Source of the DNA: Escherichia coli
GTDB taxonomy: Bacteria; Pseudomonadota; Gammaproteobacteria; Enterobacterales; Enterobacteriaceae
DNA: 840 nucleotides
Assembly (NCBI RefSeq): GCF_003334305.1
Contig: NZ_QOWS01000069.1
Reading direction: 5' to 3' (one strand)
How positions within the stretch are numbered: position 1 is the first letter of the stretch; each line of letters begins with the position of its first letter. The notes under the pieces were generated by a model. It was not told the DNA's origin and searched no databases. It worked only from the letters and a program-made list of their open reading frames with translations. This document shows positions 1 through 840 of the stretch, piece by piece. A program made the position numbers and the translations under genes.

Positions 1-651
1 GATTACGATTTCCTGTGCCGGATGGCGGCGGAGGAAGGCATCTTCTTTTATGAGGAGCACGCGCAAAAAAGTACCGACCAGAGCCTGGTCCTGTGCGACA
101 CCGTGCGTTATCTGCCGGAGTCCTTTGAGATCCCCTGGAATCCGAACACCCGTACCGAGGTGAGCACCCTCTGCATCAGCCAGTTCCGCTACAGCGCACA
201 AATCCGCCCTTCTTCCGTGGTGACCAAGGACTACACCTTTAAACGACCCGGCTGGCCAGGGCGTTTTGATCAGGAAGGCCAGTACCAGGATTACCAGCGC
301 ACGCAGTATGAAGTGTATGACTACCCCGGACGTTTCAAGGGTGCCCACGGGCAGAACTTTGCCCGCTGGCAGATGGACGGCTGGCGAAACAACGCAGAAG
401 TGGCGCGCGGAACAAGCCGTTCGCCGGAGATATGGCCGGGACGGCGAATTGTGCTGACGGGGCATCCGCAGGCGAACCTGAACCGGGAATGGCAGGTGGT
501 GGCAAGTGAACTGCACGGCGAACAGCCACAGGCGGTGCCAGGACGGCAGGGAGCGGGGACGGCGCTGGAGAACCATTTTGCGGTGATCCCGGCAGACAGA
601 ACATGGCGACCACAGCCGTTGCTGAAACCGCTGGTCGACGGCCCGCAGAGC
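1..651 (+). other. C-terminal portion of the gp27-like hub domain of VgrG (phage late control D / Phage_GPD-like region), with linker
   Basis: Frame 1 translation of this segment contains DYDFLCRMAAEEGIFFYEEH, YTFKRPGWPGRFDQEGQYQDYQRTQYEVYDYPGRFKG and NREWQVVASELHGEQPQ. I recognise these as matching the conserved N-terminal two-thirds of enterobacterial VgrG. The domain boundary is placed by eye, not by profile alignment. Confidence 0.6.
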
Positions 652-840
652 GCTGTCGTGACAGGACCGGCAGGCGAGGAAATCTTCTGCGACGAACATG
701 GTCGCGTGCGGGTGAAGTTCAACTGGGACCGTTATAACCCGTCAAACCAGGACAGTTCGTGCTGGATCCGTGTGGCACAGGCGTGGGCAGGCACCGGTTT
801 TGGCCACCTGGCGATACCGCGTGTGGGTCAGGAGGTGATT
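1..840 (+). CDS. vgrG: Type VI secretion system spike protein VgrG (TssI), internal fragment; partial at both 5' and 3' ends
   Basis: Seen in sequence: frame 1 is open for all 280 codons with no stop, and it continues past both window edges, which is why it is missing from the ORF track. Translation begins DYDFLCRMAAEEGIFFYEEHAQKSTDQSLVLCDTVRYLPESFEIPWNPNTRTEV and ends VVTGPAGEEIFCDEHGRVRVKFNWDRYNPSNQDSSCWIRVAQAWAGTGFGHLAIPRVGQEVI. Established knowledge, recalled from memory and not searched: the DYDFL.R.A.EEGI motif is typical of the phage late-control-D/gp27-like part of VgrG, and G.V.V.F.WDR ... SCWIRVAQ ... G...PR.GQEV is the conserved gp5-like OB-fold signature. Codon usage and GC-rich third positions fit an enterobacterial coding region. 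Confidence 0.88.
652..840 (+). other. Start of the gp5-like OB-fold domain of VgrG (Phage_base_V-like), continuing past the 3' window edge
   Basis: Frame 1 translation AVVTGPAGEEIFCDEHGRVRVKFNWDRYNPSNQDSSCWIRVAQAWAGTGFGHLAIPRVGQEVI. The GRV.V.F.WDR and SCWIRVAQ..AG..FG....PR.GQEV pattern is the hallmark of the gp5 N-terminal OB-fold in VgrG and phage baseplate spike proteins. The boundary is approximate. Confidence 0.65.

Follow-up and report, generated by a model that had tools for sequence, protein, structure and literature searches.

Two questions are raised by an 840-nt stretch of Escherichia coli DNA (contig NZ_QOWS01000069.1 of assembly GCF_003334305.1; referred to here as the window, i.e., the whole stretch analysed): why is it so rich in G+C, and from which locus does it come? 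[quoted passage not shown] We found that the window is the middle of an E. coli vgrG (tssI) gene, covering the end of the hub domain and the start of the OB-fold of its product. Taken as a whole, the account that very probably applies is that of an RhsE-type vgrG spike gene, GC-rich since an old acquisition, whose paralogs recombine with one another.

The identity of the gene was clear from its reading frame, protein families and alignment. Frame 1 of the positive strand is free of stop codons over positions 1-840, whereas frames 2 and 3 contain nine and eight. The 280-residue translation of the window scored 328 bits with TIGR03361 (TssI/VgrG; cutoff 186) and 239 bits with TIGR01646 (vgr_GE; cutoff 122), and the window aligned with two mismatches to nt 457-1296 of a vgrG gene in strain DETEC-E601 (NZ_CP116176.1) with a product of 702 amino acids, which makes it an internal coding piece, codons 153-432 of 702. 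Two domains followed each other in the order expected for VgrG: the C-terminal two-thirds of the gp27-like hub at positions 1-525 of the positive strand (Pfam Phage_GPD, PF05954, E=7e-39; window residues 1-175 on model positions 127-303 of 305), and then, at positions 694-840 of the same strand, the beginning of the gp5-like OB-fold (Phage_base_V, PF04717, E=2.5e-7; residues 232-280 on model positions 13-57 of 75). The vgrG assignment of the initial annotation therefore stands. Outside the window, the full-length best hit presents periodic VG/IG dipeptides at residues ~520-640, as expected of a C-terminal beta-helix. The closest solved structures are also VgrG spikes, 7q5p and Pseudomonas aeruginosa VgrG1 4mtk (E ~1e-97 to 1e-100), and the VgrG matches in the PDB span residues 13-544 of the best hit. 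By sequence, P. aeruginosa VgrG1 (4mtk/4uhv) and 7q5p belong to the same fold family (gp27-like hub, gp5 OB-fold and beta-helix), but P. aeruginosa VgrG1 comes from another genus and has another C-terminal cargo-selecting region. The Sci-1 VgrG of enteroaggregative E. coli (6sjl) is much more distant (E=8e-25), and the PDB search returned no structure of the present E. coli VgrG. We read two antisense open reading frames (ORFs) of 133 and 92 amino acids (positions 321-722 and 335-613, negative strand) as side effects of GC-rich coding DNA, given the overwhelming family support for the sense frame. Scans of the window revealed no Rfam family on either strand (E <=1), no direct or inverted repeats of at least 14 nt and no Chi sites.

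The GC content of the window is 60.71% by exact count, and 64.3, 47.1 and 70.7% at the first, second and third codon positions of frame 1 (GC1, GC2 and GC3). Its maximum lies at positions 361-660 of the positive strand, with 63-67% per 60 nt and 66.7% at 601-660. As a null, annotated backbone of the retrieved E. coli loci, ~198 kb when pooled, was cut into 840-nt windows; their mean GC was 50.5% (standard deviation 5.1%, maximum 61.8%), and 0.4% of them reached at least 60.7%, which places the window at z ~2.0. Its GC excess over the backbone is thus confirmed as real and unusual. GC3 is the sharper discriminator, with 70.7% in the window versus 54-56% in the flanking core genes. GC2 is also somewhat higher in the window than in the flanks (47% vs 41%); therefore protein composition contributes to the excess. 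The figures read by eye in the initial annotation (~60% overall, near two-thirds at 601-660, and ~50% for an E. coli-like backbone) agree with these counts and with the DNA on either side of the best hit (49.9% and 52.7% GC), and the comparison it had proposed, exact GC and GC3 against the host, turned out as it anticipated.

The GC richness is shared by a larger set of genes. The window covers the GC-richest part of vgrG: the whole best-hit gene has just 55.7% GC (GC3 67.6%), its nt 1-1530 have 57.7% (GC3 70%) and the 3' remainder 50% (GC3 57-62%). The T6SS core genes of the O157 strain Sakai together reach 55.1% (GC3 62.9%), and single-copy genes among them have GC3 values of 71.5% (clpV), 74.6% (ECs0222) and 66.4% (tssM). 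Tip and immunity ORFs lie at the other extreme, with 28-33% GC. High GC marks the T6SS, vgrG and Rhs-core set as a whole and is not diagnostic of Rhs linkage, because single-copy T6SS core genes are enriched as well. Rhs cores have been described as G+C rich, with A+T rich tips, and as associated with vgr and hcp (PMC2935791). The use of GC richness as a sign of an Rhs/vgr element was thus only partly right: Rhs cores and vgr are indeed enriched, but so is the entire T6SS cluster.

Locus and copy number were surveyed in 5,426 complete E. coli genomes by megablast. The window segment was present in 3,644 of them, at a median of two and a maximum of five places per genome, in accordance with the several paralogs that had been predicted and for which mapping had been suggested as a check. 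Three locus classes were distinguished, which are positions 6, 4 and 1 in the numbering of Jackson et al. 2009 (PMC2935791): yncH-pptA, where vgrG is followed by a classical Rhs core (junction in 2,971 of the 5,426 genomes); cusS-nfrB, with vgrG, a protein annotated as DcrB-related and a PAAR-Rhs (junction in 2,636); and the distal end of the aspV T6SS core cluster, with the order hcp-vgrG-rhs (junction in 2,068). From DETEC-E601, the closest genome, the RhsE- and cusS-locus copies were compared, and O157 Sakai was used as a stand-in for the cluster copy; there, a complete tss cluster ends in hcp and an adjoining paralog whose 5' 1.5 kb is the shared one. Both 99.8% matches to the window were found in the arrangement yncG-yncH-(vgrG-RHS core-dsORF-IS1/ISAs1 remnants)-pptA-yddH-nhoA, with 66 nt between the vgrG stop and the RHS core start and without tss genes within 20 kb. 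By coordinate matching and direct inspection of two, 10 of the 11 matches at >=99% are at this yncH-pptA (RhsE) locus; the eleventh, in strain JL05 (99.4%), belongs to the cusS-nfrB island with vgrG and PAAR/Rhs. We consider it likely that the window copy is the RhsE-locus vgrG, historically named vgrE. The proposed Rhs-linked accessory island is well borne out, the closest matches being directly upstream of an RHS core of 60-61% GC and away from any tss gene.

The best-match loci have the parts of a classical Rhs element. The GC-rich core ORF of ~3.7-4.2 kb, annotated as 'RHS element core protein', has 60.1-61.2% GC versus 50-53% in its flanks and a GC3 of ~70%; in its last 500 nt, the AT-rich tip, GC falls to 42.6%. 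The small downstream ORFs are AT-rich too (dsORF-e4, 27.8% GC; dsORF-h1, 32.9% GC), and ISAs1-family (H-repeat) transposase genes or remnants precede pptA at the yncH loci.

The prediction that vgrG paralogs recombine through their conserved 5' regions was borne out by the comparison of copies. These are colinear, with 88-100% identity in each 150-nt bin as far as ~nt 1500, and then diverge abruptly: beyond that point, identity per bin is 9-51% with the cusS type and 72-81% with the T6SS-cluster type. BLAST homology between RhsE- and cusS-locus copies extends from 505 nt upstream of the ATG to nt 1532, and that between RhsE-locus and cluster copies from -11 through vgrG and ~3.8 kb of Rhs core. 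Within the window, the table of polymorphic sites shows a mosaic. Positions 63-151 (positive strand) hold 17 diagnostic sites of RhsE-locus type, which differ from the cusS-locus paralog of DETEC-E601. They are followed at 152-739, on the same strand, by a 588-bp tract identical to that paralog, which site table and permutation point to as an inter-locus conversion tract; three further differences lie at 740-752. Inside the tract, the window has C at position 256 (positive strand; CCA, Pro, versus GCA, Ala, in the best hits), a nonsynonymous difference in which the window base is that of the DETEC-E601 cusS-locus paralog. The O157 RhsE-locus alleles differ from the window at ~35 sites within 492-733. 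JL05 has the window's 63-151 block at its cusS locus, whose copy is a patchwork of cusS-type and RhsE-type blocks, ~100-150 bp each, in alternation. Identical tracts of 485-588 bp occur between paralogs of one genome. A GENECONV-like permutation was significant (p<1e-4) for the DETEC-E601 RhsE-locus/cusS-locus pair and several other pairs, a PHI-like test gave p<0.0005, and 2,043 of 6,216 informative site pairs failed the four-gamete test. These results show that gene conversion takes place between loci within the conserved vgrG 5' module.

Several observations weigh against the account of an old GC-rich RhsE-locus gene. The total GC of the window is only ~2 standard deviations above backbone windows and, by itself, not off-scale; the case for a foreign origin is a compositional one only. 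None of the 5,426 genomes contained a 100% identical record (best 99.8%), so the flanks described here are those of close matches. The Rhs core carries a frameshift or internal stop in five of seven inspected yncH loci with a full-length vgrG (L001, at 21720-25935, L002, L008, L019 and L020). Because the adjacent core is so often a pseudogene, the functionality of the vgrG-Rhs module is doubtful in many strains, and at yncH the module may often be non-functional; some of these frameshifts and stops may also be sequencing artefacts in GC-rich repeats. Finally, the assignment to the RhsE locus is uncertain because the 840 bp come from a recombining module, with the JL05 match at cusS, and inter-locus conversion prevents assigning the window to a locus with certainty. 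An origin from the cusS-nfrB copy (vgrG, DcrB-related protein and PAAR-Rhs) is therefore to be weighed: the 840-bp JL05 segment, the identity with the DETEC-E601 cusS-locus copy over 152-739 and the base at 256, in which the window departs from the DETEC-E601 RhsE-locus copy, all speak for it. We judge it unlikely, given that both 99.8% matches and 10 of 11 at >=99% sit at yncH and that typical cusS-locus copies show the 17 differences at 63-151. An origin from the aspV cluster, which would make the window a core-cluster gene and not part of an accessory island, appears very improbable: the cluster paralog exists and its homology with the RhsE-locus copy runs from the ATG through ~3.8 kb of Rhs core, but the Sakai copy is just 94.8% identical to the window and none of the 11 closest matches maps there. 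Since rhs lies downstream at the cluster too, Rhs linkage would hold in any case.

For the GC signature of this RhsE-type gene, we favour an old acquisition from a donor of higher GC whose mark has been incompletely ameliorated, as the composition suggests. By the regressions of Lawrence and Ochman (1997), both the GC1 and the GC3 of the window would fit a genome of ~61% GC, as for imported DNA. That the host itself could be a higher-GC enterobacterium, with the window compositionally ordinary, was suggested by nothing beyond the window's own GC and was rejected with near certainty, because the best-hit flanks have 49.9% and 52.7% GC; the window matches E. coli chromosomes at 99.8% nucleotide identity, and their backbone around it has 50-52% GC. 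It is also conceivable, though unlikely, that the excess was made or kept inside E. coli, by GC-biased gene conversion among paralogs or by selection on amino acids or codons. The recombining 5' module is richer (57.7% GC, GC3 70%) than the non-shared 3' part (50%, GC3 57-62%), the Rhs cores, likewise multicopy, have 61% GC, and the GC2 of the window (47% vs 41% in the flanks) attests to a part played by protein composition. GC-biased conversion is nevertheless doubtful as the main cause, because single-copy T6SS genes have equal or higher GC3 (clpV, ECs0222 and tssM, see above), and multicopy conversion is not required.

If the DNA of this locus was imported, as the old-acquisition reading holds, the event can only be ancient: Jackson et al. 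2009 infer that positions 1, 5 and 6, including the yncG-pptA rhs locus, predate E. coli (PMC2935791), and the absence from K-12 is a deletion. In K-12 MG1655 (locus L003, 6474-9488) a 4.4-kb deletion runs from -68 of the vgr ATG to mid-rhsE, taking with it the entire vgrE and half of rhsE at its 5' end; the yncH-vgr intergenic region is kept up to 68 nt before the ATG and is fused to the 3' half of rhsE. Strain 200112 (L010, 18046-21937) is intermediate, retaining nt 1-749 of vgrG and 90 bp of Rhs sequence ahead of the same 3' half of rhsE. At the two 99.8% loci, no tRNA or integrase is annotated at yncH-pptA, only insertion sequence (IS) remnants, direct repeats not having been searched; the aspV cluster does abut a tRNA. 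Of the marks of a recent island, the locus thus has the atypical composition, without a tRNA or integrase and without a presence pattern explained by gain rather than loss. The yncH-pptA island is accordingly ancestral and decaying, not a recent import. The suggestion of horizontal acquisition survives as to a foreign, higher-GC origin, with which the composition fits, but not as a recent event.

For the function of this gene, the following picture can be proposed. The vgrG product would form, as a trimer, the spike that tips the type VI secretion tube. Its conserved N-terminal 510 residues would make up the universal part of the spike, capping the Hcp tube and docking on the baseplate, and the locus-specific C-terminus, from ~nt 1530, would select the linked cargo, either by itself or with the help of an adaptor or chaperone (mechanisms reviewed in PMC6971182 and PMC7216683). 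The cargo would be a classical Rhs at both yncH and the T6SS cluster, and the DcrB-related protein and PAAR-Rhs at cusS. A role of the variable C-terminal region of VgrG in determining effector specificity has been reported (PMC6971182). The analysis shows the identity, domain layout, composition, loci, copy number and mosaicism of the present gene, while its foreign origin, cargo specificity and secretion function are inferred. The 5' module, present in two to five copies per genome, probably serves as the substrate of short-tract conversion, because its copies are 88-100% identical; by this process they would be both homogenised and reshuffled. A further and rather speculative notion is that the 5' 1.5 kb of vgrG acts as a portable homology anchor, with conversion over ~100-600 bp among the three loci and GC-biased conversion helping to keep GC3 high, so that the GC would be more than a relic of foreign DNA.

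The survey also yielded observations on the neighbourhood of these genes. The RhsE- and cusS-locus copies share ~505 bp of AT-rich sequence (36% GC) upstream of the ATG (L001, 19040-19544, and its equivalent in L013), whereas the T6SS-cluster copy shares just 11 nt; this sequence may be a common regulatory region of the two accessory copies. When the upstream region and the gene were scanned for promoters and terminators, hits were no more numerous than in shuffled sequence. The accessory junctions yncH-vgrG (2,971 genomes) and cusS-vgrG (2,636) are commoner than the core-cluster hcp-vgrG junction (2,068), and many strains may for this reason keep vgrG-Rhs islands without a cognate aspV cluster, or with a divergent hcp. 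In many strains an IS1, with its transposase annotated, lies between cusS and the cusS-locus vgrG, splitting the match in two over ~3.3 kb. K_EC180 (L009, 11545-16247) has a cusS-locus vgrG truncated at nt 1509 that abuts a partial ORF for a zincin-like metallopeptidase toxin, the deletion having removed the DcrB-related gene and the N-terminus of PAAR-Rhs. At the yncG-yddH site, ATCC 25922 (B2-type; L006, 7982-19645) instead has a tandem pair of PAAR-VgrG modules, with a DUF4123 gene after one and a peptidase M35 gene after the other, whose vgrG shares only ~76% identity with the window; the site looks like a hotspot where alternative T6SS spike/effector islands reside. Elsewhere in the DETEC-E601 chromosome (NZ_CP116176.1, ~879-984 kb, upstream of paoC), a stretch rich in IS26 and longer than 100 kb holds sil/pco, tet(A), blaOXA-1, aac(6')-Ib-cr, floR, sul1/2/3, oqxAB, mph(A), blaTEM-1, blaCTX-M-65, fosA3 and a MobF relaxase, and looks like an integrated multidrug-resistance plasmid.

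The vgrE and vgrG genes of the E. coli Rhs elements RhsE and RhsG were reportedly described by Wang, Zhao and Hill in 1998. They are the closest known counterparts of the present gene, from the same species and the same yncG/yncH-pptA locus (position 6, PMC2935791). These elements share with the best-match loci a vgr upstream of the GC-rich core, an AT-rich tip and ISAs1/H-repeat sequences downstream; there is no substantive difference, the window being at least two substitutions away from database alleles. Enterohaemorrhagic E. coli (EHEC) O157:H7 EDL933 has three vgrG genes with >=90% amino-acid identity, linked to rhsE, eagR-rhsF and the T6SS island (PMC7216683), and its VgrG1/2/3 islands are the same three locus classes as found here. 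The O157 alleles are 94.8-95.6% identical to the window and differ chiefly at 492-733, where the window is of cusS type. Among other Proteobacteria, Agrobacterium tumefaciens 1D1609 likewise has multiple vgrG modules, their products nearly identical, with conserved N-terminal and cargo-specific C-terminal parts and linked effectors; the paper on that strain (PMC6971182) stresses duplication and redundancy, while the E. coli mosaics described here represent ongoing inter-locus conversion. For Rhs cores, Jackson et al. 2009 found clustering by locus and little or no inter-locus recombination (PMC2935791), in contrast to the clear short-tract conversion among vgrG 5' modules. This last point is a mildly new nuance only, as the essentials (vgr upstream of GC-rich Rhs cores, three EHEC paralogs, VgrG modules with conserved N- and variable C-terminal parts) were already published.

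The finding has little consequence beyond correct annotation. It confirms that, in E. coli, deviant base composition is a reliable flag of T6SS/Rhs polymorphic-toxin loci. No locus can be given to a short read or window taken from the conserved vgrG 5' module, because the same sequence type sits at different loci in different strains, and this affects assembly, read mapping and allele typing for T6SS effector islands. The mosaicism of these genes illustrates the exchange of cargo modules mediated by a spike gene, a concept already accepted for T6SS auxiliary clusters.
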